A DNA stretch of 64,000 nucleotides from Candidatus Levyibacteriota bacterium. Its GTDB lineage: Bacteria; Patescibacteriota; Microgenomatia; Levybacterales; UBA12049. Shown here one piece after another: positions 968 to 60,600 of this stretch. The stretch is from contig CAVRKE010000001.1 of assembly GCA_963722305.1 (NCBI GenBank), positions 501,549 to 565,548 of the forward strand. The letters are read 5' to 3'. Numbering within the stretch: the first letter of the stretch is position 1; each line of letters starts with the position of its first letter. The position numbers were made by a program, and so were the translations under genes. The notes below the pieces were generated by a model. The model did no database searches, was not told the origin of the DNA, and was given only the letters and a program-made list of their open reading frames with translations.

Positions 968-1070
968 GGATATCCTTACTCCCGGAGAAATTGCTCTGCA
1001 CATTAACAAAACAGAAAGCGTATTACCAAAGAGTATACGGGCTGATCTTCTGGATATTTCCAGATCAAGT

Positions 1071-22475: not shown

Positions 22476-22578
22476 ACTTGATCTGGAAATATCCAGAAGA
22501 TCAGCCCGTATACTCTTTGGTAATACGCTTTCTGTTTTGTTAATGTGCAGAGCAATTTCTCCGGGAGTAAGGATATCC

Positions 22579-22875: not shown

Positions 22876-23212
22876 AGAACTATTCTATCTTAGTCTAAGG
22901 TGACTGTGCAGATTATGGGGTCCATTATACTTTTGTAAGAAATTCTCTCCCCAAAAATTCTCCCCCTCTAAAATCAGGGTCATTGCTAGGATAAGCATAT
23001 CTACCCTTAAACGTCCTTAAAGGTTCTCCGATGTACATTGCTGCTTCACTATTTTTTCCAACCAGTTCTGCCATGGGCAGATTGTATCACGACGTAAATA
23101 ATATATCAAACAACATCAAGAGACATACTTGAGGACTTGCTTTTTTGAAAAGGGGTTTTGTGCCAAAAATTTTGGCAGGGTTGCTTAGACTCGAGATTAA
23201 AAGTGAGCGTTT

Positions 23213-29323: not shown

Positions 29324-29414
29324 GAATAATCTTGGGAATGGTTTCGCATTCGATTGAAGGAAAAGAACTGTTAAAACTTTTGGAAGAAATCAGAAAACTT
29401 TTCGAGACAAATTC

Positions 29415-30266
29415 GGGTTCTCCTACCCTGTTGGTAAAGCATGTAGCGTGTTTTGCAAGTAATGGTAAGGAGATTTAAACATTTCCGGTCTGGAAAATCT
29501 GCAGTAAAATTCACAGACATATTCTTCAAGCTTTTCTTCACTGACATGGTGGTACATCCTCCGGATAAAAGTCCTTAAAACGCCAAACATTCCTTCAATT
29601 TCAGAGGTGTTGGTAAACTCAAATTTCTTGTGAATGTCTGTCATATGGAATAGAGGATAATACTTATCAATATTTTTGTAAATAGTAGAGCCATCTGTAT
29701 TTAGTTGAGACTCTGGTTTAACGTAAGTTCTAACAAAATCAATTGCATCTTTCTTCGCTGGGGCATCAGAGGAGAGGATTTGATAAGCAAGCTTTCTGGT
29801 TCCTCTCTCCTTTCCCATGAGAAGTGCGGTATTACCAAATCTGCCAAAGTAGGCCTCATCAAGCTGGACAATATGCTCTAGAAGCCTCTGATCTCTTGGT
29901 AATTGTTCTCTGAACAAGTCAAAGTAATGTCTGACTCCCTTCTCAGACAAAGAAGTTAGATCTTCAGTCTGTTTAACCGGCATTTGTTTTGTCCAGCACC
30001 AGAGAATTAACCAAAATCTCTGCAAAGGAATCTTCACATTGCAAAGCCAGGTATGGGAAAACAGCGAGAACTTAATCTGACATTGTCTACATCTGTATCT
30101 TTTTTCAAAGCGAACAATATTCCAGGATTTGCACTTTGGACAGAAGATATTTCTACCAAAAACAGTTCTTCTGAGAAACTTTTTAATCTGGGCATCCGTA
30201 GGTACTTGTTTTAAATGGTACATAATCATATTCTAACGATTTTGTACCAACAGGGTGGGATTACCC
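29415..30266 (-). mobile_element. IS1595-family insertion sequence, intact copy B (852 bp)
   Basis: Same IRs as copy A. An 8-bp direct repeat ACAAATTC lies at 29407-29414 and 30267-30274. Confidence 0.9.
29423..30229 (-). CDS. IS1595-family transposase (intact)
   Basis: 268 aa. Zn-ribbon CPKCKS..RYRCRQC, with DDE-type residues in VQLDEAYFG, NTDGSTIY and TSEIEGMFGVLR. Confidence 0.9.
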   Translation of the reverse strand: MIMYHLKQVPTDAQIKKFLRRTVFGRNIFCPKCKSWNIVRFEKRYRCRQCQIKFSLFSHTWLCNVKIPLQRFWLILWCWTKQMPVKQTEDLTSLSEKGVRHYFDLFREQLPRDQRLLEHIVQLDEAYFGRFGNTALLMGKERGTRKLAYQILSSDAPAKKDAIDFVRTYVKPESQLNTDGSTIYKNIDKYYPLFHMTDIHKKFEFTNTSEIEGMFGVLRTFIRRMYHHVSEEKLEEYVCEFYCRFSRPEMFKSPYHYLQNTLHALPTG

Positions 30267-30315
30267 ACAAATTCCTTATTGAAAGGCTAAATTTGGGCTG
30301 ATATAATTTAAATTT

Positions 30316-35315: not shown

Positions 35316-35738
35316 GTGGCGAAGAAAATCAAGACAATAATTAAGATAAATATACCTGCCGGGCAGGCCACGCCTGCGCCACCGGTGGGAACGGCTTTGG
35401 GACCACACGGATTACCGATTATGGAGTTCGTCAAGGCCTTTAACGACAGGACTGCCGAGCAAAAAGGCACCATTGTTCCGGCTGTAATTACCGTTTACGA
35501 AGACCGCACTTTTTCGTTCATTGTCAAAAAATCTCCGATTGCGGAAATGATTAAAAAAGCGATGAACCTGGAGAAAGGTTCCGGCAAACCGGGGACAGAA
35601 TCGGCAGGAACATTGACTAAAACTCAGGCCGAGCAAATTGCCAAAGACAAGCTGGAAGATTTGAATACCGACGACGTGACTCAAGCTGTCAAAATTGTGG
35701 AAGGAGTCGCCCGCTCAATGGGCATCAAAGTACAATAA
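35316..35738 (+). CDS. rplK: 50S ribosomal protein L11
   Basis: MAKKIKTIIKINIPAGQATPAPPVGTALGPHG... is the canonical L11 N-terminal domain. GTG start. Confidence 0.95.
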   Translation: MAKKIKTIIKINIPAGQATPAPPVGTALGPHGLPIMEFVKAFNDRTAEQKGTIVPAVITVYEDRTFSFIVKKSPIAEMIKKAMNLEKGSGKPGTESAGTLTKTQAEQIAKDKLEDLNTDDVTQAVKIVEGVARSMGIKVQ

Positions 35739-35739
35739 T

Positions 35740-36639
35740 ATGGGAAAAATTAGAGTCAGAACTCTTGGCGACGAAAGCCAGGAAGAACAACAAAAAAACG
35801 AGGTCAAGAAAAAACACGAGGCTAAATTGAACGCAGCGAAATCCTCGACGAGAGGAAAGACGACCAAGGCTCCCGGCATGAAAGGCGGCGAAAGAGTGGT
35901 TTCGGTTGGCCCGAGCGAAGAAGAATTAGCCGCTTTGGATAATAAAGGGGTGGCAGAAGAGGGAGGGCTCCCGACAGCGCGCAGTGAAGAGAGCACTGGC
36001 GGGAAGGAAACCTCTGACAGGACCCCGACAAAAAAGCCTAAAAAGGAACAAAAAAACTTCCATTCGCAAAAATACGAGAAACTGTTAGCCGAAGTTGACC
36101 GCAGCAAGACTTATCCTTTAAACGAAGCGCTGGCGCTTTTGCAGAAACTGCAGCGGAAATCTTTTGACGAAACCGTTGAATTGCATGTTAATACCTTAAC
36201 CAGTGGTATTTCCGGCCAAATTACTCTTCCCCACGGCACCGGTAAAACCACCCGCGTCGCCATTGCCGACGACAAAATAATTGCCGAAGTCGAAAAAGGA
36301 GTGATTAATTTTGACGTTTTGGTGGCAGAACCAAGTATGATGCCAAAACTGGCCAAGGTGGCTAAAGTACTAGGACCAAGAGGCTTAATGCCAAACCCCA
36401 AAAACGGCACGATTTCGCCAAAGCCGGAAGAAGTGGCCAAAAAATATGCCGGCGGACAAATGAACTTTAAAACCGAGACCAAAGCACCGATTATTCACTT
36501 AACTGTCGGCAAAATTTCCTTTGGTCCGGAAAAATTAACCGAGAACATTGAAGCATTAATTGCCGCCATCAAAAAAACTAATATCGTAAACGTTACCTTG
36601 AAATCTACAATGAGCCCGGGGCTGAAGATAAAGATCTAA
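35740..36639 (+). CDS. rplA: 50S ribosomal protein L1 with a ~110-aa Lys/Glu-rich N-terminal extension
   Basis: The canonical L1 core begins near KYEKLLAEVDRSKTYPLNEALALL and includes ..LPHGTGK.. and ..LGPRGLMPNPK... The start is set at the ATG at 35740, 1 nt after the rplK stop. Confidence 0.85.
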   Translation: MGKIRVRTLGDESQEEQQKNEVKKKHEAKLNAAKSSTRGKTTKAPGMKGGERVVSVGPSEEELAALDNKGVAEEGGLPTARSEESTGGKETSDRTPTKKPKKEQKNFHSQKYEKLLAEVDRSKTYPLNEALALLQKLQRKSFDETVELHVNTLTSGISGQITLPHGTGKTTRVAIADDKIIAEVEKGVINFDVLVAEPSMMPKLAKVAKVLGPRGLMPNPKNGTISPKPEEVAKKYAGGQMNFKTETKAPIIHLTVGKISFGPEKLTENIEALIAAIKKTNIVNVTLKSTMSPGLKIKI

Positions 36640-36684
36640 GCCTCAATTTGACAATTTTTTACCTCAGTAGTATTATCCGCAAGT

Positions 36685-36942
36685 ATGCCATGCCTACATG
36701 AATTGGGTTTAGTACGAAGAATTAAAAATACAGGCACACATATCGCACGATCGATTGACAGATTTGAACTGAAGGTTGAAGGGCTTAGTTCAAGGCAAAA
36801 AAGACAAATTTATTTTGTTATAGTAGCATTTATGTTAGCTACTGTAGGTTCCATTGGCGCAGTTGCAGGTAATGACTTAGGCGCTGCGATGCCTTTCTCC
36901 GGAGCTGCCGCATCGATATTTGGTGCAGCCATGAACTCCTAA
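36685..36942 (+). CDS. Small hypothetical membrane protein (85 aa)
   Basis: A TTGACA-N17-TATTAT promoter (36648-36676) lies 8 nt before the ATG. Gly/Ala-rich C-terminal TM segment. Confidence 0.45.
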   Translation: MPCLHELGLVRRIKNTGTHIARSIDRFELKVEGLSSRQKRQIYFVIVAFMLATVGSIGAVAGNDLGAAMPFSGAAASIFGAAMNS

Positions 36943-36989
36943 CTCGGCCTATTGACAACCAACCACCTCAGCATTAAAATCCGCTCAAT

Positions 36990-37844
36990 ATGATAAGAGA
37001 ATTTGGAACATTTCGACCTCTGTCTCCCAGCCTAATAGGTGATCCACAATCACCGGGACAAGCTAGTCCTACTAAAGATTCTGATGGCCGCTTAGCTCCG
37101 CAGGAGCGCCGTATTAAACTGCTTGCTGCTCTTTGCGAAAAAGGACTGTTTAAAGCGGTCGCTGCCTTGGAAAAAGAACAACCGACGAATGATCTTAAAT
37201 ATCGTTCCTGGGAATTAGTCAGGCACGGTAGAGCGGCAGAAGTGGTTGGAACAGTTTTAGGCCCGGACGGAAAACCAATACGTTACAACGGTTTTGAACC
37301 GTATTTTCTCGGTCTTCCGGCAGAGAAAATTGTCAAGCGGGAAATCGAATTAGGCCATCATCTTGCAGCTGAACTTAAGTTGGAACATCCAAAGGGCAGA
37401 ACAATAGAACTAAATCAACAGGAACGGGAAGTTATAAAAGCTTTACGCGGTGAGGAAATATCCCATTCCCACATTATTCAGGTATTAAAAGACCTTGATT
37501 GCGTTTTTCAAGTTGTTCATAATAGGGCAAAAGGCGGTTTAATTTGGGAAGGCATCCGGTTCCGGGACCACACGCATGACATTGTTGAATCAAGCCAACC
37601 TTACGAACCAGTCGTTAAAAATACGGTTGTTCATGTAGAAAACGCGGAAGACAGAAACGCTCTTATCTTACTGGGTGAAATCGGCATTATAGGCCATCCA
37701 GCACTTAGAGAAATCGTTGAGGGTATTCCTTTTAGATTTGAAGAAGAACCAAAACCTGTTATAGTCGTAGACGAGGCAACACATCGAAGGCTTAACGCCG
37801 CGGTGCATACTGGTGAAAAAGGACCGCCTGATGAACTTGCCTAG
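36990..37844 (+). CDS. Hypothetical protein (284 aa)
   Basis: A TTGACA-N17-TAAAAT promoter (36952-36980) lies 9 nt before the ATG. No recognised motif. Confidence 0.55.
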   Translation: MIREFGTFRPLSPSLIGDPQSPGQASPTKDSDGRLAPQERRIKLLAALCEKGLFKAVAALEKEQPTNDLKYRSWELVRHGRAAEVVGTVLGPDGKPIRYNGFEPYFLGLPAEKIVKREIELGHHLAAELKLEHPKGRTIELNQQEREVIKALRGEEISHSHIIQVLKDLDCVFQVVHNRAKGGLIWEGIRFRDHTHDIVESSQPYEPVVKNTVVHVENAEDRNALILLGEIGIIGHPALREIVEGIPFRFEEEPKPVIVVDEATHRRLNAAVHTGEKGPPDELA

Positions 37845-37908
37845 AATCCCTTTCCGTTCGGTTTGACAATAAACCGCCAACACAGTAAAATCCCCACATT
37901 ACTAAATT

Positions 37909-40089
37909 ATGAGCGTAGAGCAGCACAGACGCACCAACAGAGAGACTCTTGCCGAGGCTTTTTCGCTTGAAAAACAAGCCGCGGGCGCAATAGCGGGGAG
38001 ATTACATTTAATACCGCTACATGAAAGACAAGAAACGGAAACTGTTAAGCTGACTTTTGCATCATTCGGAGTAGTAGGCGCATGCGGCCAAACCGGCCGG
38101 CTTTATATCGAGAGGACTGCTCTTGGCTCCCCCACTCTTCCCATTACTGCAGTTGATTTGGTAGAGCCTACGAAAAGAGGAATAGAATTCCCCGACAGCG
38201 TTAAATTTTCTAGCGATTTAGCTTCAATTTTGCAAAGAAAAGACAGACCCGAAGCTTTTATTCTTGCGACCACTAATCCCATTGATAAACTACTTGAAAC
38301 TTTTAGAGATAACCTTGACGACAGACATATCACTTTGATTCTTCCTCAAAATGGAGTTGACGTTGTACCAAAAGCTCAAGAAATATTAAAAGGTAAAAAC
38401 GTAACTTTAATAAGAGCAAGCTTATTTACACCGGTTGATACTGAGCCGGATGGAAAAATTAAATATCCGGAGGACAAATTAAGAATAGGGCTTTCTTTAG
38501 TCAGGCCGGAAGGAGATATTGCCGATCCCGAAAAAGAGAAAGAACTTCAAAAGGCGGTAGAAACGTTTAGACGAGGAGGTTTTGACGCTAAAATTTTTGA
38601 GAACTATGTCAGCATGGAATGGACAAAGTTAGTTTTGAATGCGGTTGGCATAACAGGAGGTATTGTCGGCATTTCACCAAAAGAAGTTTACAATGACCAC
38701 GCCCTGTATCTACTGGAAACGCAGGCGCTGCACGATAGATTAAGAATTTTGGAAGCAGCCGGAATTAAATTAGAACATATTCCCTGGGGCGGAGCCGCAC
38801 TTTTACCTACATATGATTCTCTCCCTGGACTAATAAGAAAAAGTCATTTGGCGCAATTCCTTTATGGCCAGAAAGTGATTGCCGGCAGAGGGAATAAGCC
38901 TTCATCGGTTGGAATCAATATTCAAAAAGGAACCCCAACTGAGGGAATTACTTATCTTGAACCATTTGTCAAACTTGGAGAAACGGTTGGACTGCGATCA
39001 ATTGTCGATGAAGCGATGATTGAAATCATTCAAGGAAATTATACATTTATAACTCGTCGCAAAAACGACGTTGATACTCAAGAAAGAAAAATTGATTTGG
39101 CAGATTTTAGCCTCGAAGAGAGAAGAACGCTTTTGTTTGAAACTATTAGAAAACTAAGCCAAAAACCGCCAACCCGCCTGGACCGACTTGAAGGCAGAAT
39201 ATTTGCCGAAGGAGCGAAAAGATTTCTTCGTTACAGGATTATTGATCCACGCAACTACAGAGAGCGAACAGCTGAAGTTTTGCATCCAAAAAATGCTGAA
39301 GAAAAACCAGGTGAGGTGGTTGAAGGATTAAATCATGGAGACATGTCTGACTCTATTCACGGAATGGAATTAAATTTCACGATAGATGATATTGCCCATG
39401 CCTATGGCATGGATACTTTTTGGCATTACGATCGAACAAGAGGAAAAAAATATACCAGACTTTATGCTTGGGTAGAAGCTAAAGTGACAGCGGCAACCGG
39501 TATGCGAACCTACCACATCTTAAGGGAAAAAGATTTTGAATATTACCGAACCCACCGCGGAGCTATAGAAGGAAAAGCTCCTGAAGAATATAGCGGCCCA
39601 TCCTACAGAAAAATCAGGGAAAGACTTAAAAAAGAAGGCGGAATTTTTCTAATTGCTCCAGAGGCAACCAGAACTTTAACCGGCGAGCTAAATAGAGCTC
39701 AACCTGCAGGACTATTTTTAGAAACAAAGGACTTCAAGGAACGGGGCGTTTATCTTCCGGTAGGACTTGTCCCGACTTCTATCAAAGTCCCTTATCCCGA
39801 GAGAAGAAGTCTCGCCCAAAAAGCTAAACGCTTTTTGGCTAAAACAGAAATTAGAGTAGGAAAGCCTGTAACCTACGCTGAAATTATCCAAGATATGACA
39901 ATTGTCAATGAAGGCATAAAAGCTGTAAATAACCAAAGAGGAGAAAATGAGCAACTCGAATTAATGACCATAAGCGACATGATGATGCTTTATATCGCTA
40001 GGGTTCTTCCTCCACAGTATTGGGGATACTATAAAGAATACGTTCAATTCATGCCAAAAAATAATGGCAACGCTCCCCTAGCCACCTAA
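37909..40089 (+). CDS. Fusion protein: ketopantoate-reductase (ApbA/PanE)-like N-terminal half plus PlsC-type acyltransferase-like C-terminal half
   Basis: The N-terminal half has a Rossmann motif VVGACGQTG and MEWTKLVLNAVG (the W.KL..N motif of PanE). The C-terminal half has NHGDMSD (H-x4-D) and IAPEATRT (an FPEGTR-like motif). A TTGACA-N17-TAAAAT promoter lies at 37863-37891. Confidence 0.5.
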   Translation: MSVEQHRRTNRETLAEAFSLEKQAAGAIAGRLHLIPLHERQETETVKLTFASFGVVGACGQTGRLYIERTALGSPTLPITAVDLVEPTKRGIEFPDSVKFSSDLASILQRKDRPEAFILATTNPIDKLLETFRDNLDDRHITLILPQNGVDVVPKAQEILKGKNVTLIRASLFTPVDTEPDGKIKYPEDKLRIGLSLVRPEGDIADPEKEKELQKAVETFRRGGFDAKIFENYVSMEWTKLVLNAVGITGGIVGISPKEVYNDHALYLLETQALHDRLRILEAAGIKLEHIPWGGAALLPTYDSLPGLIRKSHLAQFLYGQKVIAGRGNKPSSVGINIQKGTPTEGITYLEPFVKLGETVGLRSIVDEAMIEIIQGNYTFITRRKNDVDTQERKIDLADFSLEERRTLLFETIRKLSQKPPTRLDRLEGRIFAEGAKRFLRYRIIDPRNYRERTAEVLHPKNAEEKPGEVVEGLNHGDMSDSIHGMELNFTIDDIAHAYGMDTFWHYDRTRGKKYTRLYAWVEAKVTAATGMRTYHILREKDFEYYRTHRGAIEGKAPEEYSGPSYRKIRERLKKEGGIFLIAPEATRTLTGELNRAQPAGLFLETKDFKERGVYLPVGLVPTSIKVPYPERRSLAQKAKRFLAKTEIRVGKPVTYAEIIQDMTIVNEGIKAVNNQRGENEQLELMTISDMMMLYIARVLPPQYWGYYKEYVQFMPKNNGNAPLAT

Positions 40090-40128
40090 CCCTTGACGGA
40101 AAAATAAATATGAATTAATATCCACATC

Positions 40129-40254
40129 ATGTCAATTGAAAGAAAACATTTAAACAGACTTGAAGCTTGGAAAAAAGGCGAACCATATCGTAGAGCTGTT
40201 GATCTAACGCGTAGCGATGGCTACAATCCATCCATTCCCCATCCCCACAGCTAA
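40129..40254 (+). CDS. Small hypothetical protein (41 aa)
   Basis: MSIERKHLNRLEAWKKGEPYRRAVDLTRSDGYNPSIPHPHS. A TTGACG-N17-TAATAT promoter (40093-40121) lies 7 nt before the ATG. Confidence 0.3.
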   Translation: MSIERKHLNRLEAWKKGEPYRRAVDLTRSDGYNPSIPHPHS

Positions 40255-40289
40255 AAGGAGACCGTTTTATCGAATCTTCAGAATGGGCC

Positions 40290-40442
40290 ATGAATAGAGG
40301 GCTTATTGCGGCTGCATTTTCTTTCTTAAGCTATCTTTCTGGGAATGAGCGGGCAGGTACAGCGGCAGCGGCGACAGCGGCTGTTTTTATCTTAAGCTCC
40401 ATTATTCTTTATAATCTATCCAATTATTCAAACCCAAACTAA
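40290..40442 (+). CDS. Small hypothetical membrane protein (50 aa)
   Basis: MNRGLIAAAFSFLSYLSGNERAGTAAAATAAVFILSSIILYNLSNYSNPN has two hydrophobic segments, in the same style as the C-terminus of 36685..36942. Confidence 0.25.
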   Translation: MNRGLIAAAFSFLSYLSGNERAGTAAAATAAVFILSSIILYNLSNYSNPN

Positions 40443-40510
40443 GGCACCTATACCTTGAAGACAAGTAAGACATGCTCATGTTAAATTTCTGTCTCGAAAT
40501 AGATTAAGTC

Positions 40511-42185
40511 TTAAGGTTGACTTCTTTGAGGTAAAGTTGGCAATGAATCTTTCGTTGCTTCCCATTCTTTAAGAATCTGAATAACTCTTTGGTTCTCACC
40601 TGCTGTGGGATCTAATATAGCCTCTTCCAAGTTAAGCATAGCCACGTTATACAGTTTGCCAAACTCTCTAACAAAATTTGCATCATGTCCCTTGCTCAGA
40701 GACCGTTCATGTGAGATTTCATGAAGATAAGTTTCAAGTGCAGTTGAAAACGCTTGATGGATTCGTTCTTGTGCTTCCCACAAGAATTCAGGCGTATAAT
40801 GCCCATGGAAAATACTTTTTTCCTTAGCAGCGCTAAACATCCAGATTTGAGGAGTTTCCTTAATTCCCATTATTTCTCCGGCAAATTCCCTTAGCAATCC
40901 CGTTCTTGTGTTTTCAGCTTCTGAAGGCTCAATTCTAAAATGACTCATTAGATTTTTAACAGCTTCTGCCGTTGTAGTCATTCCCAAATCTGCCATTGCA
41001 GGATGACAAAGAACATAACCTGCTCCTTCTAGAGCTAGGTCATAGTCACCAAACGCCTCGTTGCTTATGGCGACATATTGAGAAGGAAATTCTAGCGGTT
41101 GTCCGTGATATTTTTCGACATAAGCATCCACCATCGCTCCCAATAATTGCCCTGGTATTGAAATATCGTAAATTGAATTCATGAAGTCTTCCCCCATAGC
41201 CAATGCGTTTGCCATGCCCTTTTTTGTCCGATCGGGATCGTCTACGCTTTCTATGTCTACCGATTTAGGACCTCCTGGAACCAATGGTTTTTTTCTTCCA
41301 TACCAAAAATCGGGATTATTGACTATAGTGCTTCGTATTTCTTCCTCTGTCATTCCAGCTACAATTTTCGGAATAACGTCTTCTTCTATTTGTCCTTTTG
41401 TTACAGCTCCTCGGTCTCGATCCGCACTTAAAAACTTTTCCCTTAGTCCATAGTGTTATGTCTTCAATTGCATTGTAACCTCCGCCACTCTTATCACCCA
41501 GAAATAGAAGATCTTGACGAAAATGACGTCTTTGTCCAGCTTCGTAAATATTACCTTTTTTGCCTTTGTGGAGCTTAAAGCCTCCAACTTCGGGATTGCT
41601 ATATGTGGGATTTCTAAAGTCAGGATTTTCGCTTGAATAGAAAAGATTTCTTGTTTCAAGAAATGTTTTTGCCATTCCTGGTGTTGGAAACTTAACACTA
41701 AACCTACTTCCGGCTTGATAATGAACTCTTTCTACTCTTGCATAGAGGCCTTTCGTGGGTTCATCGCCAATTCTATAATCAGGAACATCATTTAGATAGT
41801 AGGTTAAACGCCAGTCTCCCGATTCGTGCACTACTTGATTAGCTCCCATTCTTGTCAACATGATTAGCGCGGCGACTTTTGCTCCTTCCCGATATCCTCC
41901 CGCAGATGAATCATCCATAGATTTTGTTCCTCCGCCCATATGCATTAAATGTGAATAGTCGTATTCACCTGAACCGCCTATTAAAACTTGGACTCCGTGT
42001 TCGGTTTTGGTTTGAGAATGGATAACTCCGTCTAGTGTGCCACCTTGCCCATCAAAGAAGTTTTGCCATACATCTCGAGCGGTTTTTTCATCATCCCAAG
42101 GAACGTTGTATGTTGTAAGTAAGCCAAGATATCTATTTTCAATTACCGAAGACCTTATTTCGCCTGATGGTATTGGATCTGGCAT
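40511..42185 (-). pseudogene. Frameshifted ~558-codon gene: GHKL-ATPase-like N-terminus, HExxH-containing C-terminus
   Basis: Track ORFs 41316..42185 and 40511..41353 overlap. The downstream frame is open from 41455 and reads ..LREKFLSADRDRGAVTKGQIEEDVIPKIVAGMTEEE.., so a +1 shift near GGGAAAAG (41442-41435) joins them. Motifs: ARDVWQNFFDG (N-box-like), GGYREGAK, LHEISHERS (HExxH). Confidence 0.55.
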
Positions 42186-42263
42186 AGCAATCTAATTGTT
42201 GTATATTACGAATGTAATTGCAAGCATATCTCGAGCATAATCCATGCTTGAGTTTTATTCTTT

Positions 42264-43115
42264 CTATGTTCCCGTCCAAATCCCAGCAATCATTCCCTTG
42301 CTTTGTAATAGATCAATTGTGGTTACTGCAAAATTTAGATGGTGTTCAAAAAGCGTTTCTTCAACTTTTTGTTTAATAAATTTTAAGAGAAACTTTTCCA
42401 TTTGCTTATCTGGAAGTACAAAAAGAATAATTGTATTAGCTGCTGTTGCTCCTTTGTAGTCTGAATATTCAATATATTGTTGTACTCTGTATCTTAAATA
42501 GTACCTTGGAGTCTTTTCTCCAATTAATTCAAGGTAATATAAATAGTCTTCTTTATCCTTAACTTGTTTTTTAAGCTTATTAATAGCTGTTGTTAATTTA
42601 ATCTTTTTCTTTATATAGTCGTCAATGATTGCAGGAGATGTTTTTAAAGATATTGCACAATCAGGATATGGTTCTATTATTACATCGTCTTCGTAGAGCT
42701 CCTGTTTTGTTTTAAAGAAGTTTAACGCATTAAGATCTTCAGTTTTACGTAGAGTGTCTAGGTAAAGATTGGCAATTACTGAACATCTACTTCTAAACTC
42801 TTCACTTCTTTCTTTTTCTCTGTAGAATTTATGAGCTGTATCATAGTCGATGTTATATCTAACAAACCTGACACCGGTTGGCGCTAAGAAATACACTGCC
42901 GGTTGAAGATTGAAAGGTGTTTTTCTGTCATAGATACGGTATAGATAGTCATTTTCTACTAAGTTTTTAAGCCATACGTTAATTCTTTTATAGTCCTTAT
43001 GTTTCATTATGGTTTGTATTTGAATTCTGTTTAGGAATCTGAATTTATGAATTAGTTTTAGTATTTCTTTTTGTTTTTCTGAGATGTAGGGTAGTTCGTA
43101 AGACCATTTTTTCAT
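42264..43115 (-). CDS. Replication-relaxation family-like protein (wHTH N-terminus); plasmid/integrative-element type
   Basis: 283 aa and AT-rich. The N-terminus ISEKQKEILKLIHKFRFLNRIQIQTIM resembles the wHTH of replication-relaxation proteins. The call is from memory of the family only. Confidence 0.4.
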   Translation of the reverse strand: MKKWSYELPYISEKQKEILKLIHKFRFLNRIQIQTIMKHKDYKRINVWLKNLVENDYLYRIYDRKTPFNLQPAVYFLAPTGVRFVRYNIDYDTAHKFYREKERSEEFRSRCSVIANLYLDTLRKTEDLNALNFFKTKQELYEDDVIIEPYPDCAISLKTSPAIIDDYIKKKIKLTTAINKLKKQVKDKEDYLYYLELIGEKTPRYYLRYRVQQYIEYSDYKGATAANTIILFVLPDKQMEKFLLKFIKQKVEETLFEHHLNFAVTTIDLLQSKGMIAGIWTGT

Positions 43116-43494
43116 ATGTTTTTTGTTTTTAAGAGGCAGTTATTGTTTTTAGTTTAGTTTTGAGGGCAGAGGTTTTATTGTTTAGTATTATATCATTTTA
43201 GCGGATTTTAGAGTTATATCTTTATTTATATTTATATAAATAGAAAAGAGGGAATAACCCAGGATGTGATTTTAGACATTATTCGGCTAATTTAATGGAA
43301 AAATAGACACCACCCCCGCCCTAGCCGAATAGGGCAAAAAGAGTACTTACGTAGGTACTATTTGAAAGCTATGATATACTTTAATTTAATGAAAAAGAAA
43401 CTGTTGGAGAAAGATAAAAAATTATTAGAGTTTGTAAAGATGGGTGGACGTGAGGGAGCAAAAAAAGATTTCCTATCTTTACTTAAAAAAGCAG

Positions 43495-44385
43495 CTAAAC
43501 CTTTAAAGTCTTAACCTCTGCAACTTGTCTTAGTAGCATTTCAAACATTTTTCCCTGATTGTTTCTCTGATTATATCGCCAAGCATATTCGTTGACATAA
43601 CTTTGGAGATATTTCTTTGAAACAACTCTATAAACTCCCGTAATTCCTCTTTTTAACTGAGACCATACCCCCTCAATAGTATTATTGTGAATAAATCCTC
43701 TTACATATTCTCCGCTTGAATGATTAACTTTGTCATGGTCGTAGTATCCAAAGTCATACAGGTTTTTATACGAAGCAAGTTCATCTGTCATGACATGGGC
43801 TTTAGGACTGACATTTTGTTTTATCTGGTTTATCAGCGTCCATTTTCCAGTATTGGGAATATGTTTTAAGTATGCCTTGCCACCCCTTTCAACTGCTCCC
43901 CAAACTACTTCCTTAGGTATTTCGTTGAAGTTTGGTTTTGTAGCTCTATTCTTACCCTTACCACCGATATATGTTTCGTCTATTTCAACAATCCCGCTTA
44001 AAAGTCCACCTTCCGTTTCTGCCATTAACATTCTGATTTGTTTAAACATTCTCCACGCCGTCTTATATGTTACCCCTAACATTCTCTCCAATTGTTTGGC
44101 CGATGTTCCGGATCTAGTTGTAACCATTAAATACATTGCAAAAAACCAAAGATCAAGTGGAGTACTGGTTTTTTCAAAGATAGTACCGGCCAGTGGATAG
44201 ATCTGAAACCCACAATACTTACAAGCATATGAGGTTCTATTGGTTACGGGATAGAAGACTGAAAGACTTTTACATTTAGAACATTCCATCTCATCTGGGA
44301 ATCTTAAGCGTTTAATAGCTTCCAGGCACTGTAAATGTGTACCGTATTTTCGCTTAAATTGTCTGAGGCTAAACTTCTTATTCAT
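43495..44385 (-). CDS. IS1595-family (ISXO2-like) transposase, a second, different element
   Basis: Zn-ribbon CSKCKS...CKYCG. DDE-type residues in VEIDETYIGG, VMTDELASY and NNTIEGVWSQLKR. The element ends could not be defined with confidence. Confidence 0.8.
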   Translation of the reverse strand: MNKKFSLRQFKRKYGTHLQCLEAIKRLRFPDEMECSKCKSLSVFYPVTNRTSYACKYCGFQIYPLAGTIFEKTSTPLDLWFFAMYLMVTTRSGTSAKQLERMLGVTYKTAWRMFKQIRMLMAETEGGLLSGIVEIDETYIGGKGKNRATKPNFNEIPKEVVWGAVERGGKAYLKHIPNTGKWTLINQIKQNVSPKAHVMTDELASYKNLYDFGYYDHDKVNHSSGEYVRGFIHNNTIEGVWSQLKRGITGVYRVVSKKYLQSYVNEYAWRYNQRNNQGKMFEMLLRQVAEVKTLKV

Positions 44386-44609: not shown

Positions 44610-45452
44610 ATGGATACAAATACCAAAATCAGCACCAACCGGCCCACCAACACTAAAGTTACGGCGGGCAGGCAGAAGAAAATTGAAGTCGTTGCCAAGC
44701 TTAATGAAAAGTTAGCCAAATCCAAGGCAATTATCTTCACCAACTACACAGGGGTCACCCACAAGCAGCTGGAAGCCCTGAAAAGAGCGATTAAGCCAAT
44801 GCAGGCGGAATATGTCGTCGCCAAAAATTCTTTGATTCTCAGGGCTTTGGACGAAAACAAAATCAAGCTTGAGGGCGAAAATCCGCTGCAAGGCCCAACC
44901 GGAACGCTTTTGATTTATGCCGACTATATTGAACCGCTCAAGCAGCTGGCCAAAACCATGAAGGAACTGGGGCTTTTAAACATTAAGCTTGGTATTATGG
45001 AAAATCAGTTTTTAAGCGGCGAGCAAATCTTAAAAATTTCCGCTCTTCCGCCGAGAGAAACCTTACTCGCTCAAGTTGCCGCCGGCTTAAAGTCCCCTAT
45101 TTCCGGTTTACATCGGGCTTTGAACTGGAATTTACAGAAATTAGTGATGACACTTAAGGCTGTTGCCGATAAAAAACCCGCAGTCGCTGCAGTTCCGGTT
45201 CAAACTGTTCTGACCGCGAATCCGACAGAACCCGAATCAGTCATGGCGGAAACCGTAGCCGAAAAAACTGCTGAAACAGCACCCGCGGAACCTAATCAGC
45301 CGGCGGCCGAACCAAATATTACCGAGCCTGAAACAATCGGGGCAGAAACCGAAGCAGAAGTAGTCGCCGAACAACCAGAGAAGGATAATCCTACAATTGA
45401 AGCAGAGAAAAGTGTCGCGTCAAACGCGATTGGCGAAGGGGGTGAGAATTGA
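44610..45452 (+). CDS. rplJ: 50S ribosomal protein L10 with a ~110-aa Ala/Glu/Pro-rich C-terminal extension
   Basis: L10 core (..[32 protein letters not shown]..). It lies upstream of rplL and overlaps it by 4 nt. Confidence 0.85.
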
Positions 45453-51622: not shown

Positions 51623-54600
51623 TTATTGAGTCGGTGTTATGGTTGGAGTTGAAGATTCAACCTGATTTAGAATTGATTGGAACGCCGCCGACTGGGTCGC
51701 TTGCGGTTCGGGTGTGGGCACTACCGGCTCCAGTCCCGCAGTTTTGGCATCCTGGACTGAAAGCGCCACCCAGGAAAAGTTAATATCTTCGGGTGCGGGT
51801 TTATTCAGCCGAATTGTAAATCCCTGGGTAGTTCTATCGGTAATCACATAAGAAAGATTACCGTTAAGGATGGCATCTTCCAAAGCTTTCTGGGCCACCT
51901 GGTCATTTATTTTGTCAAGGGCAATACTGGCAGTGACAACCGGTGTGTCGGCATACTCGTTGTCAAAAGTCACCGAAACAGTATCCTCTCCCTGCTTAAT
52001 CACCGCAAATCCGGCCGTATCGCTGTTGAAAGTCGGAGTTGAATTAAATCTGACGTTACCCTTAAACACCACGTCGTTCATAAAGTAACTAAAGCCGGAA
52101 ACGAGGAAATTATTGGTCGTCAGACTATCAAGAACATTCAAAGCGCCCTGGATAAGGCCGTTACCCGCAACATTTAAGTCGGCCGAAATAGTGGCCAAAC
52201 CGTTAACGTTCAAATCGGAAAGGTTGAGGGTTGAGGGAAGGGTTGTTGTCGCCGATGGCGTGGCTGTTGCCAATTCTCCGCTTTGAGTGGCATCGGAAAG
52301 AACCGCTACGCTATTAGATAGTGCTGAAATTTGGTTGGTCAGTATTTCCAAACCCTCAATATGGTCGGCCCTGATGGTTTTGGCAGTAATTAAGTCGGCG
52401 ACAATTTCCGGGCTGATTACCTCGCCGGCCGCCACTGTTCCGGTGAAAACTTCCGAAGAATTAAACGCTGCCGAACCGGCGTCCTTAAGGCTTTGCAGGT
52501 ATACCAAAGTATTTTGGTCACCGCTGGAAATTTGGTTCATGTAGGAATCAAGGCCGGTATCCCCATAGATATCGGCAAACCCCGCACTGGTCGAAGCCAC
52601 AAAGTTTTCGTCCGCCATTGCCAGCTCGACACTTTCGCCGTTATAGCTGGTTAAGTTAACAAAGACCGTGATAGTTCCGCATTGGGTGGTTGACAAACTG
52701 CCTGCCCCTTGGGCCGGACAATCGGAAACTTCGGTTGGGTCGGTCGGGTCAAAATCCTCAATAGCAGTTCCCAACACTCTGCCGGCCACCGTGGCTTTCA
52801 TCGCGTAACCGGGAATTGAAGACGATGTCAGGTAATCACCGGAATGGATTGGCCCGTTTTCGGTGGAAACCAGCACGGGCACGCGTCCCACAAGGGCGAT
52901 GGGATAAGAATCCGGTGTGTAAGCACCCGCTACGAATCCCGGGTCTGTTGAAACCACTCCCATGATGTTACTTTGGTATTGCATAGTTGACTGAATCACA
53001 TTTTGTGCATTAAATTGGTCGCCGACCACCACTTCTCCCGGATTTAAAGTTTGGGTGGAGGTGTAATTTTCCGCTAAATCCGCCCCGCCCGAGTTCCACG
53101 CCCCGCCTGCGGCTGTGTAAGCCTGTCCGTCGGCGGCAAACCTAAAGGCATTCATTCCTTCACTGGTTAAAGTCAAAATATTCGGGTCTGTGGTATTTGC
53201 CAGTCTCCAGTACTGCAAAGTTGGCGTCTGTATCTGCCTATAATAATCAACTGAACCTCCGCTATCTATTCCTGACCAAACTCTCTCTTTCTCATAAGGC
53301 ATATTTGGCATTGTTCCAGTAAGGGTAAACTTAAACTGCGCCCAGGTGTCGCCGGCATTTGGATTAATCAATCCACCGGCTTTTTCGACATCATTCCAGT
53401 TGGTGGCCGTCATGGCGGCCAAACTTGAACCGGTTCTTGATTGGACTCCGATTGCCCCCTGCCCGACATTTTTCCAGTCGAGCGAAGTATTGGCAGTAAG
53501 GTTATTGGAATTTATTGGTTCAGTCACATACGTCCCCTGTAAATTCCAGCCGGCATCAATGATCATTGTATTGGAACTGCCTCCTACAATGACTACAAAT
53601 TTTCCATCCGGTCTTTGAAAAACATTTGTGCCCGCAGCTAAATTGCTAGGCGAAGGTAACGTCGGGCCTGCCCAAGTTCCTCCTACAACCTGTACAGAAG
53701 GGTCCACAATTGTTGTCGAGGTTGCCCCGCCGTTTGCCCACAGTATTTTTCCATCCGGCAAAGGAATTGTAAATGCGCCCGCTCCGGCATTGGCAGACAA
53801 AACTTCACCGAGCGCGGCGGTAAACGTACCAAGTCTTGCATCATAAAGATAAATCGTAGTCGCGGCTGTTCCTCTGGTTTGCAGCCAGTTGCCGTTGGAA
53901 ATTTGCACAGTGGTTGCGTTTGCCCCGTATGCAGCAGTGGTAGCAGGGCCAACAACAAAAGAGTTGCTTGATTCTTCATAGATATCGGTTACCGCACTGG
54001 TCCCTAAAAAGACAAGGTATTTTCCGTCAGGCCTTTTAATGCTGTAGGCTCCAGCGGTGACCGTTGATGTAGTGGCCGGACCGGCTGTAAATGAATTTAA
54101 GAACGGGTCGTAAATGTTGGTATTGGCTGTTGCACCTCCCAAAATTATCAGAAATCTTCCATCAGAGCGCAAAATAGCATGAGCGCCTGCGCCAATTGCG
54201 GCTGTTACGCTAGGTCCGGCGAAAAAAATATTTCTGACCGGATCATAAATATCTGTAAGCTGAGAGGCGCCTATAAACAACATAAACTGCCCGTTGGGTA
54301 AAGGTATCGAGAATGAACCGGTATTCGGATTGCTCGCCCCAACCGTTGTCGGACCGACAGTGAACAAACCGGTAGTCGAATCATACATTCTGGTTGCGTT
54401 TGAATTACCAGCTAAGATAATCAAAAACTTACCGTTTGGCAACTGTAGAGTGTGGGACCCTGTTCCAGCAGTGCCGCCCAAGTCCGCCGAGGCAGATGCA
54501 ACAATAATATCGGCATTAGAACTTGGCACGCTGCCATTTTCAAACGTTGCCAAAGTAACGGAATCGGAATCGCCAGTAACTGTTCCGTTAAAAACCGCGC

Positions 54601-57600
54601 TTTGGGTGGCGGCGTTTCTATCTTCGGTTGAATCACTGGCCAGTACTCCACCGTAGCCGGCAATTGGATTCTGGATTTTGAAATCATAAAGCGTCGGTTG
54701 GGTAATTTGGCGCACGTACTCGGTTGAACCCTCTGACGCCCACATGTTGCTTGGCACTGCCGTTCCTACCACTTGGTTATAAGGCGGGGCAATCGGCGAG
54801 TTGAATTGAATTTGAACCTTGACTTGAGTCGCACCCGGCATAGTTTGAATCAAATCGCCGTTGTTTTGAATTAAGTTGTAACTCACACTGCCAAGATTCC
54901 CGTTAACAGCCGTTTTGACATAAACCTCGACTCCGGCCGAAGGCGACGCCGAAACCGCAGGCGTCGAATCCCAAAAAATCGCCGAATAGGTGGAAATTTT
55001 TGTGCTGGTAATATCTTCCGATGTCCAAACACCACCAGTCCTCCAACCTACGTCATAAACCGTCGAGTTTGTACCAAGTGCACCGTTAAGAATTAAATAA
55101 CTTCCGTTATCTCTCTGGAATACGCCGCCCCCTACCCCAACCGAATTAGGTAAATTATTGGTAACCTGCGTCAGACTGCCGGTTGTACCGGAGGTCGGGT
55201 CGTAAAGATATGTCGCTTTTGAACCGTTGCCAACCGTAATTATCCATTTGTTGTTGGCCATTTGAAAAGCGGTTGAACCGGTGCCGACTTTATCACTAAA
55301 TTGCGGTCCGGCTGTAAATGTGTTAGTGGCAAAATTATAAATATCCGTATTGATATTATTGTTGGCATCAATCACCATAAACCTGCCATCAGGCAGTTGC
55401 AAAACATTGGCGCCGGTACCCGCAGCCGACTGGAGCGTCGGTCCGGCCGAAAAAGTACTGGTTACAGGATCATAAATATTGGTGGTAGTGGTGTTACCGC
55501 CCAGGATTACTATCCACTTTCCGTCCTGACGCTGGAAAACCGCCGAACCGGAAGCGACAATATTACCTGCTCCCGATAAAGCCGGCCCCTGGGCCATAGT
55601 GTTGGCAACCGGGTCATACAATGCGCTATATTGTGAACCGCCGAGTAAAACCAGGAACTTGCCGTCGGAATGCGGAATAACGCGGGAACCACCGCCGGCG
55701 ATATACTGGACGCCGCCAATTACTGGCAGATTCGGGCCAACCGCGATTGAACCAAAATTATTACTTCCGGCCGGGTCATAAATATCGCTTCTGTTGGCAT
55801 AAGTGATTACGAATTTCCCATCCTGTCTTTGGAAAACCGCCGAGCCGGAACCAATGGTTGCAGTTAAGTTAGGTCCGACGGTAAAAGTATTGGTCGGCAC
55901 GCTATACGTGTAAATTCTGGCGCTGGCAGCCGATACTCCGCCTAAAAATGCTACTACTCCGTTTTGCTGCCGCATAATTGCCGAACCCGAAGAAATTGGG
56001 ATTACCGTTGAAGGTGCGCCGGTGGAAGTTGGATTGATAGTGCTTGCAGTTAAAGAATTATCAACCTGCATTGAAATATCATTATTTGCAATTGAAACGT
56101 TAGTTGAACAGTATCCACTGCCGCTGCAGAAAGTTCCTTGGGTAAAGTCTGAAGTGGTGTTTTTAGTGATATCATCGTTGGTTGAATTTCCGGCAATTCT
56201 AGCAGAACCGACAACGTCAAGATTGTAACCGGAATTAGCTAAAGAACCGCCAATCCCGACACTGCCGTTTTGGTTAACGACAAATCTGGTTGCCCCGGAA
56301 GCAGAAGCGGCAATCAAAGCGCCGGTTCCCGAATTGTCGACGACCAGACCAGCAAAAGAAGTTGCCCCGGAAATGGAGGCGATAGCAATTGTGCCATTAT
56401 TAAGTCTGACATCAAAGTTTGCCAGAGGAGTAGTTCCGTCAGTGTTAATCCCCACCAAACCTGAGCCGCCCGGATTAATCGCAAAGTTTTGGTTAGTTGC
56501 GGTGCTGATTGTATCAATACCGGTTCCGGTAAAGCTAATTCCCGAACCATTGCCGGCCATCACTAAATTCCCGTTTTGCTGAACGGTGAATAAAGGCACG
56601 CCGGAGGCTGAAGCCGTAAAAATATCTCCTGTTCCCAACTGGTTTATTGTTAATCCCGCAAAAGAACTATTTCCGGAGAAAGAAGCTACTCCCAAAGTTC
56701 CGCTGGAACCCCGAACATCCAAAGTGGCAAGCGGCGCGGTGGTGCCAATACCAATCATGGCGCTGGCGGTAGCGTTGTTGACACCTAAAATACTACCTAA
56801 GATTAAACTGTTGTTTTGTGTTACATAAGCATTGGCTCCAATGGCTGTGGCGTTAATCAGATTGCCTAAACCAACATCGGCACCATACCCCAAAAGCGTA
56901 TTTAAGCCTCCAACGTCAATTGTCTGTCCTGCCTGATCACCCACGGCAGTATTGTTGGTACCAAGAGTCGTACTTTGACCCGCCTGATAGCCGAGGAAGG
57001 AGTTTTGAAAACCGGCGGTGTTGGAAAAACCTGCTCTGCCACCGAGGAAGGAATTGTTATATCCGGCGTTATTGTTATAACCTGCATAAAACCCGAGGAA
57101 GGAATTGTTATACCCGCTGGTATTGAGCCAACCTGCCATATAGCCGAGGAAGGAGTTGTCGTATCCGGTCAGGTTGGATAAGCCCGCCGTTTCGCCAAAG
57201 AAGGAGTTTTGGTATCCGGTGGTGTTATTTTGACCTGCGTAAGATCCGAGGAAGGAATTTTGGTATCCGGTCAGGTTGGATAAGCCTGCATAAAATCCAA
57301 CGAAGGAATTGTTATTCCCGGCGGTATTAGCACCACCTGCAGAATCTCCAACGAAGGAATTATTGTATCCGGTGGTATTAGAATTACCTGCATAAGCTCC
57401 GAGGAAGGAATTGTAGGATCCGCTGGTATTAACACTACCTGCATTCATACCAAGGAAGGAGTTATTAGATCCGGTAGTATTATATTCACCTGCGCCATTT
57501 CCAAAGAAGGAGTTTAGAGATCCGGTGGTGTTGCTTTGGCCTGCCTGATAGCCGATGAACGAGTTAGAGCCACCAGTGGTGTTGGATTGACCTGCGTTTA

Positions 57601-60600
57601 GGCCGATAAAGGTATTGGATTTGCCCGATCCTCCGTTTCTAAAATCTATTGCGGTTGTGCCGTTAGAGTTTAAAATTGTGGCAATCGGACTAACTGTATT
57701 TACTTGCCTGAGGATAACGTTATCAATTGTTCCGTACCAATTCATCGTTGGGGTAAAAGTAAGGTCTCCCGCGCCGAAAGAAGTAATCAGTTGGGTGTCG
57801 GTTTTACTCATGTTGACGTCTTGACCGACGGCTGTACCGTTTGTTCCTCCAACACCCGGAGTTAAGGAACCGGAAGAAGTACCGGTAGTTGTAAAAGTGT
57901 AAGTCAGCTCATAAGTACCGGCAGCAATAAGCGTATCAAAATCAGTCGTGTTATTAGTTAAAGTAAATACCCCTGTTCCCGGAGCATCTTTAGCCGCAAC
58001 ACCACTTGAATTAACATTAACATTCCACGGGGGCTGTCCGCCTGATGTTGTCCAGTGGCCGGTGCCCGAAAATTGACTATCGTTAGCAACGTTCTTAATC
58101 TTATTCGCTTGTACATAACTAGCGACGTCTCCGCCAACAACTCCCTCAATCGCCAGTTTTGCTGTTGGCGTATTTGTTCCAATCCCGACATTGCCGTTAT
58201 TTTGTATTACAAACTTCGTCCAACCACTGGCGGAGGCGGTAAATAAATCCCCAACGCCGTCATTGTTGGCCACCAAAGAAGCAAAGGATGTTGCTCCGGA
58301 AATTGAAGCAATGGCGATTGTCCCAACGTTAGGCCTAACATCAAAATTGGCCAGAGGAGTAGTTCCGTCGGTGTTGATGCCAAAAAGACCGGTGCCGCCC
58401 GGATTAATCGCGAAGTTTTGGTTACTGGCAGTGGTAATAGTATTTAATCCTGAAGTTCCCGAGAAGTTAAGGTCTGCTCCGTTCCCCGACAATGTGATTC
58501 CGGTTGTTCCTGCCAAAGTCAAGTTGCCGGACGAATCAATGTAATTTGTGGCGCCAAAAAACTGCAGGTTGCCGGTTGAACCGGAATTAAGAGTTAGAGT
58601 GTTTCCACCGGTGTTTGTAATTGACGGGCTAGAACCGGTAAAAGCCAGATTTCCGCCATTACTTAAGGAGGCAAAAGTGCCAGCCCCAAGGCCCGTTACA
58701 GACCACTGAGCATCATTAAGTGCCAGATCACCGCTTGAAGCATTGCCGATGGTGATAGTTCCGGCATTTGAACCCGTACCAATGTTGGTGGTATTACTGC
58801 CCGAAGTATTAATACTGGTTGCACCCAAAACGGTTAAACCACCCAGAGTTCCCACCGAAGTTAAGGAAGAGCCGGTCACTCCCGAGCCTAAAGTAGTGGT
58901 AGACAAAACGGAAGTGCCTCCGATTTGGTATGCTCCCGAAGCGTTAACATTACCGGCATTGGAAATTGTGAACCTCGGCCAACCGGAAGCGGAGGCAGTA
59001 AATAAGTCCCCGACGCCATTGTTATTGGCCACTAAAGTTGCGAATGAAGTTGTTCCGGAGATGGAGGCCACCGCTAAAGTGCCGGAACTGCCCCGAACAT
59101 CCAGGGTTACGAAGGGAGCAGTTGTGCCGATACCAATATAGCCGGTATTATCCCGGATAGTCATGGCAGTTGCCCAGGTGTTCAGTCCTGACTTGTAGCC
59201 AAAGTTTAAAGTGCCGTTCCCCGGCTCAATGGTAGAGCTGTTTGTTCCTCCCAACACTAAAGTGGCAGAGATGGAAGCGCTACCGGTCGGAGCACCGATA
59301 TTGACTACTGTGGCAGCTCCGGCAAGATTAAGTGTGCCGGTTAATCCGGTATTAAATACAGCCAGAGATCCGGAAGTTTGGTTAGTAGCAATGGTTGTAC
59401 CATTAAGCGTGATTGTTCCCGAAGCACCGCCCATAGTTAGAGTTGTCGTTGCGCCACCATAGGTGATTGATGTCGGCGTCGCCAATTCCGTAACCGTAGC
59501 CAGACTGGAATTAATGTTTGAGGCGTTAAGATTGATGACGCTTCCTGCCGCCGAGTTTAATGGAGCAAGAGTAATATTGCCGCTGGTATTCCCGCCAATG
59601 GTTAAGAGCTGGTTATTGGTCGTTTGAATAGCCCCTGTTCCATAGATACTAAAAGTTAAATTACCGGAGATAGAAGCATTACCACCCAACTCATTAGTGC
59701 CACTGGTATAAGGCATCACAACCAGGTTGCCGCCGACTGTGGCAACCGGCGTCCCGCCAGCGAGGTTTAAAACCGCAAAGGCAGCCGAACTGGTTGCTTG
59801 TGAACCGATTAGAAAATCCGCAGTTGAGTTAATCGGCGTAATATATCCTCCTCCAACACCGCTAACCAAATTCCAGTAATTCGCTCCACCGCAACCGCTA
59901 CAAGACATAACCGTTAAGGCTCCGCCCTTGGTAATATGCCAGGAGTTACCTGTTCCCTCAATATCGTAAGAATAGCCGGAGGTTGTGCCTGATAAATTAA
60001 GCTGCAGACCTACCTGGTTAAACGAGCCGTTCGCTCCCGAAAGGTTTAAGGCCAAACCAACTACCCCCCCGGTTTGCGAAGTTGAGTTGGTAAGATTGGC
60101 CAAAGTACCGGTTGAACCCGTATCGGCATAGATTAAACCCGTGCCTGAATTTGGTAGTTTAACCGTAACACCATTTGCTACCTGCAAGGTGCCGGAGGTC
60201 GAGGCGTTTCCGGAGGTGTCCTGAACGGTTAGGCCGGCCACCTGTTGGGCATTAAAGGCAAACGGGACTGCGGCCATCTGAATTCTGGGAGTCATTTCGG
60301 AATCACTCCCTACTTTGACTCCCAGATAGAGTCCATCCCAATTGAAATTAAAATTGGCAGGAAATGCAACATTAGAGCCCAAAGCCACTCGGAAAATTCC
60401 GTCAACCGTGGTTACCGAATCTGTTTCTTGCCAGAGGTAACCCGAAGCCGGACTACCCGCGGTTGGGTGGTTATAGAAAGAGAAAGTCACCGAGTAGGTG
60501 CTATTGGTGACATTCGTTCCGGCGGCGTTAACCAGTTTTCCCTGAAAATTGATGGTGCGGTTAATGCCCGGCGCAGCCCACACCGGCTTTGTGAAAAATA

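Follow-up and report, generated by a model that had tools for sequence, protein, structure and literature searches.

A single extra base splits the gene of a predicted GHKL-zincin fusion protein in a Candidatus Levyibacteriota contig

Gene arrangement

The DNA analysed here is a stretch of 64,000 nucleotides (the window; all coordinates below are its positions) from contig CAVRKE010000001.1 of a Candidatus Levyibacteriota bacterium (assembly GCA_963722305.1, positions 501,549 to 565,548 of the forward strand). Between positions 40511 and 42185 its minus strand carries two overlapping open reading frames (ORFs), which together cover the gene of a protein with a predicted GHKL (Bergerat-fold) ATPase module at the N terminus and a predicted HExxH zincin domain at the C terminus. 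A surplus base breaks the reading frame of this gene.

42185–41316, minus strand: upstream ORF, 289 residues, the N-terminal half as written in the window
41353–40511, minus strand: downstream ORF, 280 residues, the C-terminal half as written in the window
40511–42185, minus strand: whole gene, one ORF of 557 codons plus stop after one base is dropped at 41428–41429
41428–41429, minus strand: site of the extra base, AA in the window and A in an independent assembly (GTT TTT A-AGT GCG), directly 3′ of a T5 run at 41434–41430

The two ORFs share an overlap of 38 nucleotides, and the downstream frame is already open from 41455. These coordinates had been given in a preliminary description, made from the letters of the window, and all of them were reproduced. 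Its suspicion that the tail of the upstream ORF is out of frame is borne out by the last 37 residues of that ORF (KCGSRPRSCNKRTN...), which match no homologue. The downstream frame, read 5′ of its ATG (ADRDRGAVTKGQ...; ...SADRDRGAVTKGQ...), aligns to a near-invariant motif of the family. Both split products are recorded from a 608,320-bp contig in NCBI/ENA.

A search with the fused query returned 77 homologues, nearly all of them single ORFs of approximately 480–620 residues that cover both halves. The best, P0001, has 66% identity over 97% of the fused query, and P0002 has 59% identity over 100% of it. Because the homologues are nearly all single ORFs spanning both halves, the split is not a chance arrangement of ORFs. 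Judged from these alignments, the overlapping pair is one gene for a protein of 557 residues, of which P0332 is the intact sequence. Intact orthologues, which the preliminary description had advised looking for, therefore exist, the examined homologues being single ORFs apart from a truncated copy in L087; its counter-hypothesis, orthologues in the form of two separate genes, finds no example among them. The proposal that skipping one nucleotide fuses the ORFs also stands, although the product has 557 residues rather than approximately 558 and the position of the skip differs from the one suggested.

Position of the extra base

In a nucleotide alignment, the four bases AAGT (41429–41426) replace a single codon (GAC, GAT or TCG) of the three closest homologues. 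The window reads GTT TTT AAGT GCG GAT, the P0001 contig GTT TTT GAC GCA GAT, L087 GTA TTT GAT GCA GAT and the P0002 contig GTA TTT TCG GCA GAC. The homologous proteins have the sequence DITLWT(K/R/N)-GKVF(D/S)-ADRDRG around this site, and the repaired junction of the window protein, GKVFSADRDR, agrees with them (GKVFS/GKVFD-ADRDR). The shift had previously been placed at GGGAAAAG (41442–41435); this position was rejected, as the alignments with homologues and with an independent assembly put the true site approximately 8–13 nucleotides further downstream, at 41429/41428.

Independent assemblies of the locus

A Logan contig from sequencing run ERR11594402 (ERR11594402_4942778, L091; 4046 bp), located by look-up of the neighbouring Replic_Relax protein, is the same as window positions 44459–40413 except for two differences: a synonymous single-nucleotide polymorphism (SNP) at 42936 and the absence of one base at 41429. 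At the latter site the minus strand of the window reads TTTTTAAGT, where the independent assembly reads TTTTTAGT. The gene lies at positions 2275–3948 of L091 as a single ORF of 557 residues, identical to the repaired protein. Run ERR11594402 also yielded Logan contig L090, which matches window positions 35954–40442 with 100% identity. The preliminary description had held that one A fewer in the reads would make the break an assembly error and the gene intact; the independent assembly, with one base fewer and an intact ORF, comes close to this.

A third contig (ENA, 4000 bp) carries the same extra base as the window and encodes ...GKVFKCRSRAEEL* and MQIESRGAVTKGQ.... Within approximately 15 nucleotides of that base, and on either side of a GATC, it carries two further differences, a G>A change and an additional G; its Replic_Relax gene is fragmented, once at an A-run. 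Such a pattern resembles the noise of long reads. Scans of JGI metagenome contigs for the exact DNA flanks gave no match for either the shift site or the junction of the IS3 element described below; the contigs that cover these sites are in ENA and Logan.

Both ERR11594402 Logan contigs stop at 40413–40442, with an overlap of 30 nucleotides, between a convergent gene for a protein of 726 residues and the GHKL-zincin gene. These ends may mark a branch point in the read set, arising from alternative joins or from variants of the element.

Homopolymer runs and the IS3 element

A systematic insertion error at homopolymers had been raised as a concern, since an IS3 element elsewhere in the window appeared to need a +1 shift at an A-run as well. 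The arrangement is as described, with orfB placed in the +1 frame downstream of an A8 run.

617–1849, plus strand: IS3-family element, copy 1; 1,233 bp, with the A8 run at 938–945
21697–22929, reverse orientation: IS3-family element, copy 2; 100% identical to copy 1, with T8 at 22601–22608

An identical A8 run occurs in five independent contigs, namely three ENA scaffolds whose names are of short-read style, a Logan contig and a further ENA contig, and the junction is genuine. Moreover, the 15 long intact ORFs of the window (31.8 kb) contain 220 runs of at least 5 nucleotides, 61 of at least 6, 17 of at least 7 and three of at least 8, none of which breaks the frame. There is thus no systematic error of this kind. 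Dropping one A from the A8 run gives a sensible OrfAB fusion, and relatives with the fused single ORF exist (P0233 and P0245). The classic IS3 OrfAB frameshift is a −1 event; the arrangement of orfB, as read from the sequence, suggests transcriptional slippage or +1 decoding instead.

Just one further pair of ORFs overlaps in the window (20231–21139 and 21027–21584); it was considered as a second frameshift and rejected, as the two are different genes. IS3 copy 1 is nested in another insertion sequence: segments 361–617 and 1849–2457 together equal the intact element at 29409–30271, reversed. The intact element encodes a protein of 268 residues and is taken to be IS1595-like from a zinc-ribbon-like ORF of 84 residues at 402–656.

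Origin of the extra base

The extra base is neither a conserved nor a functional feature. Among 90 loci the split is present in the window only, and 175 representatives with the full module are single ORFs. On balance, we favour a consensus error of the assembly behind the 608-kb contig, in which case the gene would be intact in the organism, because the independent assembly has the intact allele, the gene shows no other damage, and the differences of the third contig cluster at this spot. No lesion is present elsewhere in the gene, and the window copy keeps nearly all conserved residues of the family, departing from the consensus at R99 and S495 only, two columns that vary in the closest relatives too. 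Several observations weigh against an error. The window otherwise matches the independent contigs over roughly 11 kb and its assembly is clean elsewhere, with none of the 220 homopolymer runs breaking a long ORF; the extra base occurs in two assemblies, being identical in the window and in the third ENA contig; and the synonymous SNP makes the Logan contig a slightly different haplotype, so that the indel could be a real variant. These same observations speak for a real strain-level loss-of-function allele that arose very recently in a cargo gene of a decaying mobile-element insertion, while the gene stays intact in closely related strains or in further copies of the element within the community. 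To such an allele we assign an appreciable probability, short of even. It would suit the low-GC insertion with IS1595 and Replic_Relax genes in which the gene lies, the Logan contig ends at 40413–40442 if these mark alternative joins or variants, and the presence in the closest clade of a truly degraded copy (L087, 69% identity), which has lost the protease domain and contains a stop. However, with conserved residues nearly all kept and no further lesion, such an allele could only be extremely young; the third contig seems error-prone, its differences being concentrated at this spot; and the k-mer assembly recovered the intact allele.

Programmed recoding that would yield the full-length protein, by a +1 shift of the ribosome at UUU-A or by slippage of transcription at the T5 run, is very unlikely. 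In its favour, the frame would be restored if tRNA-Phe slipped by +1 from UUU to UUA, the sequence upstream of the site includes a Shine-Dalgarno-like stretch with GGG, and the IS3 element of the same genome apparently needs a +1 change at its A8 run. Nevertheless, the homologues are in frame with differing codons at the site (GTT TTT GAC, GTA TTT GAT and GTA TTT TCG), a near-identical copy is free of the extra base, and in the 0 frame the A site is occupied by AAG, an ordinary codon that is neither a stop nor rare. In prfB-type +1 frameshifting the Shine-Dalgarno-like element is spaced 3 nucleotides from the shift codon, whereas the GGG is located 7 nucleotides upstream of the UUU; likewise, transcriptional slippage is known at runs of approximately 8–9 nucleotides or more, and the T5 run is shorter. 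Two separate genes, one for a GHKL protein and one for a zincin, would agree with the presence of an ATG in each ORF and with the halves being distinct structural regions, but the break is located within the transducer domain, not between domains, and precedes the DRDR motif by two codons. Together with the unmatched 37-residue tail and the unsplit state of the 89 other loci, where the truncated L087 copy is the one exception to single ORFs among the examined homologues, this excludes two separate genes.

The case resembles the frameshifted pseudogenes and indel consensus errors of metagenome-assembled genomes (MAGs), in which a one-base insertion likewise splits a conserved ORF, here by a T5 run and near a GATC; it shows no feature that distinguishes it from that class. 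Promoter and terminator scans were uninformative. The frameshift itself is biologically unimportant, a discrepancy of one base between assemblies, and it illustrates that a consensus indel or a rare allele can mimic a broken or recoded gene.

GHKL and transducer domains

An AlphaFold2 model of the repaired protein was obtained with a mean predicted local distance difference test score (pLDDT) of 88.6 and a predicted template modelling score (pTM) of 0.85. The protein is divided as follows.

41631–42140, minus strand: GHKL (Bergerat-fold) ATP-binding core, residues ~16–185
42051–42077, minus strand: N-box-like helix RDVWQNFFD, with R37, D38, Q41, N42, F43 and D45, within model helix 32–46
41877–41900, minus strand: Gly-rich box GGYREGAK (consensus GGFGEGAK), capping helix 101–111 after a low-confidence lid loop, 82–100
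41315–41630, minus strand: transducer-like second domain, residues ~186–290, with conserved NPDF and GQRR; contains the frameshift site
41408–41422, minus strand: DRDRG loop, starting two codons 3′ of the frameshift and read in the downstream frame only
40940–41314, minus strand: helical linker, residues ~291–415
40514–40939, minus strand: Wss1/SprT-like minigluzincin domain, residues ~416–557
40709–40723, minus strand: HEISH motif, within the zincin domain

Conservation was assessed in 175 representatives. The N-box residues of RDxxQNFFD are 98–100% conserved (N42 100%, D45 and D38 98%). In the Gly-rich box, G96 is conserved in 100%, G101 in 99% and G99 in 90%, the last being Arg in the window and a close clade. 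The DRDRG loop is 96–100% conserved at R256, D257 and R258 in the family (R256 and R258 invariant, D257 above 90%). The columns conserved in at least 85% are those of RDxxQNFFD, G84, K88, GGxGEG, NPDF, GQRR, DRDR, GM and HExxH. Fold and conservation thus agree with the Bergerat N-box and Gly-rich boxes that had been noticed at the N terminus.

The model has the Bergerat α/β sandwich, motif I with an acidic residue (Asp, D38), and motif III (GxxGxG) at the lid and helix cap. Two features differ from typical GHKL enzymes and weigh against the proposed function: no clear DxGxG motif (motif II) was found in the protein, and the catalytic acidic residue, usually Glu in GHKL enzymes, is replaced by Asp (D38). 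A candidate for the adenine-contacting residue of motif II is D76, which is more than 90% conserved in 72 sequences but less than 85% in the 175.

The N-terminal ~250 residues of the model match the ATPase domain of T6 topoisomerase II (score 11.2, 228 residues), MORC2 (10.6, 230 residues), yeast topoisomerase II (10.6, 253 residues), MutL (10.2, 204 residues), TRAP1/Hsp90 (9.5, 228 residues) and sacsin SR1 (7.4, 125 residues). At the level of the predicted fold, the N-terminal half is therefore a GHKL plus transducer module like that of topoisomerase II, MORC and MutL. With the modules of topoisomerase II/GyrB/ParE, MutL, MORC and Hsp90/TRAP1 it shares the N-box-like helix with invariant Asn (N42) and Asp (D45), the Gly-rich box that caps a helix after a flexible lid, and a second domain with invariant basic loops. 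However, the protein has no significant sequence match to solved GHKL proteins or to the Pfam and NCBIfam GHKL models. It also differs from topoisomerase II, MutL, MORC and Hsp90 in lacking a DNA-cleavage, endonuclease, CW or client-binding domain; its C-terminal partner is a zincin.

Linker and zincin domain

The helical linker contains a low-confidence insert (41150–41299) that is present only in the window, P0001, P0002 and L087 copies. The domain that follows has a compact α/β zincin fold, with the HExxH motif on the active-site helix and H488, E489 and H492 conserved. The candidate third zinc ligand is H500 or D501, 8–9 residues past H492; in the alignment the D501 column is conserved and is preceded by His or another residue.

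The C-terminal part of the model matches Wss1p (score 9.9, root mean square deviation of 2.1 Å over 99 residues), Schizosaccharomyces pombe Wss1 (9.3), proabylysin (8.7), projannalysin (8.4) and Spartan (7.3). The predicted structure thus supports, at fold level, a Wss1/SprT-like HExxH zincin, in line with the metallopeptidase-like LHEISHERS motif of the preliminary description. Foldseek agrees with both the N-terminal and the C-terminal fold assignments, and profile scans of the repaired protein, proposed at the same time, gave no significant Pfam match. None of the Pfam models for SprT, WLM or Peptidase passes; the sole Pfam match is DUF3810 (E-value 0.012), under its cut-off. A sequence-profile search of the PDB found zincins below threshold only (Wss1p, E-value 0.24; an HtpX fragment, E-value 0.19), and its matches to de novo TIM barrels were rejected as spurious repeat hits.

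The domain resembles Wss1, SprT (Spartan) and the minigluzincins proabylysin, projannalysin and selecase in its HExxH residues and candidate third ligand. In contrast to Wss1 and SprT, it is fused to a GHKL module and not to SUMO-, ubiquitin- or DNA-binding tails.

Family and distribution

The repaired protein gave nothing significant in Pfam, NCBIfam or PADLOC, the last without a match at E-values up to 1. A profile search of 1.84 billion representatives (clusters at 50% identity) found 1,738 sequences at E ≤ 1e-3 and 383 at E ≤ 1e-30. In the GTDB representative set, which does not include the window's own genome, the family occurs in Patescibacteria, DPANN archaea, Melainabacteria, Bdellovibrionota and Myxococcota; it is found mainly in the first three, of which Patescibacteria and DPANN are lineages with an episymbiotic or reduced way of life. 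No description of a GHKL and Wss1-like fusion was found in literature searches. The family is sizeable and has no curated model; it combines, within a single chain, a GHKL-transducer ATPase with a Wss1/SprT-like protease, both of them well-studied machines.

The size of the members varies. Giant proteins of 1,300–6,024 residues without a Pfam domain (P0089 with 6,024 residues, P0093, P0121, P0107, P0092 and others) contain the GHKL-zincin module as an embedded part; their N-terminal regions are rich in repeats and, in one case, contain an EF-hand-like motif. In other members, of 700–780 residues, a hydrophobic segment at the N terminus precedes a coiled coil. When 16 longer members, the giants included, were scanned with Pfam, no significant match appeared; two sub-threshold matches (E-value approximately 0.007) occur in P0143. 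Tandem pairs of paralogues of approximately 890 residues, in Myxococcota and related MAGs (L076–L083) and in L055, match the GHKL part only (residues ~20–260/300). In the closest-clade relative L087 (3943–5211) the whole HExxH domain is deleted, with a stop at the junction, and many genes of mobile elements and defence (Toprim, AAA_14, SocA_Panacea and HTH) lie around it.

Resemblances to phage proteins were also found. In PHROGs, the first 100 residues match the uncharacterised phrog_6077 (E-value 2e-6; 2e-9 for P0020). Among viral folds, the closest matches are uncharacterised phage proteins of 360–440 residues (E-values 1e-15 to 1e-10), followed by many RIIA proteins (E-value approximately 1e-5). 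Phage RIIA and phrog_6077 combine a GHKL N terminus with a variable C terminus. The window protein has no RIIA profile match; among family members, the distant P0076 alone has a weak one (E-value 0.007 over 20 residues).

Proposed mechanism

By analogy with MutL, MORC, Hsp90 and topoisomerase II, ATP binding at the Bergerat site, with its conserved N-box and Gly-rich lid, would close the lid and dimerise or clamp the N-terminal domains. The invariant basic loops of the second domain (DRDR and QRR) would sense the nucleotide, with R256, R258 or R219 as candidates for the γ-phosphate sensor, and the helical linker would relay the switch, gating the C-terminal Wss1-like zincin, which would cleave a protein substrate. 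It is conceivable, though doubtful, that the intact gene represents an undescribed family of single-polypeptide ATP-gated proteases, in which a clamp like that of MutL, MORC or topoisomerase II controls a Wss1/SprT-like zincin. Judging from what the two parent machines do, such proteins could act in the removal of proteins bound to nucleic acids, or in conflicts among mobile elements, symbionts and hosts. If the coupling is true, it would be a new mode of ATP gating of a metalloprotease, occurring mostly in poorly understood ultra-small symbionts. The role in a conflict system that the preliminary description had hinted at is unproven, with neither a PADLOC match nor a conserved partner gene: none was found across the 90 loci searched.

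Genomic neighbourhood

The window belongs to a Patescibacteria genome; the nearest named relatives of its L1 protein are labelled 'Patescibacteria group' and Candidatus Levyibacteriota. The gene lies in an insertion between two ribosomal protein genes, which splits the conserved nusG-rplK-rplA / rplJ-rplL cluster.

36990–44385: insertion of approximately 7.4 kb, between rplA (35695–36639) and rplJ (44610–45452)
42264–43115, minus strand: Replic_Relax-like protein of 283 residues, the upstream neighbour (Pfam PF13814, E-value 1.6e-6)
43495–44385, minus strand: IS1595/ISXO2-type transposase at the edge of the insertion (Pfam PF12762, E-value 1.9e-37)

The insertion contains two genes of unknown function, the GHKL-zincin gene, the Replic_Relax gene and the IS1595 transposase. 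The mobile-element context noted earlier is thus apparent from the Replic_Relax and transposase genes of the same insertion. The guanine plus cytosine (GC) content is 33% at 42–44 kb, compared with approximately 42% elsewhere, and no boundary or flanking repeats were found at 36990–44385. The protein of 726 residues encoded in the insertion has a weak PanE/ApbA-like match only, and that of 284 residues has no match.

Repeats are present in other parts of the window. A giant ORF of 3,017 residues (51623–60676, minus strand) contains diverged internal repeats (56.3–58.4 kb, 72–79% identity) and has a GC content of approximately 0.47–0.50, above that of the rest of the window. Adjacent tandem genes for proteins of approximately 149 residues (2504–2953 and 2955–3401) have 87% nucleotide identity, and the ORF of an HTH_3 protein (19169–20164) contains an internal repeat of 90% identity (19187–19569 and 19613–19989).
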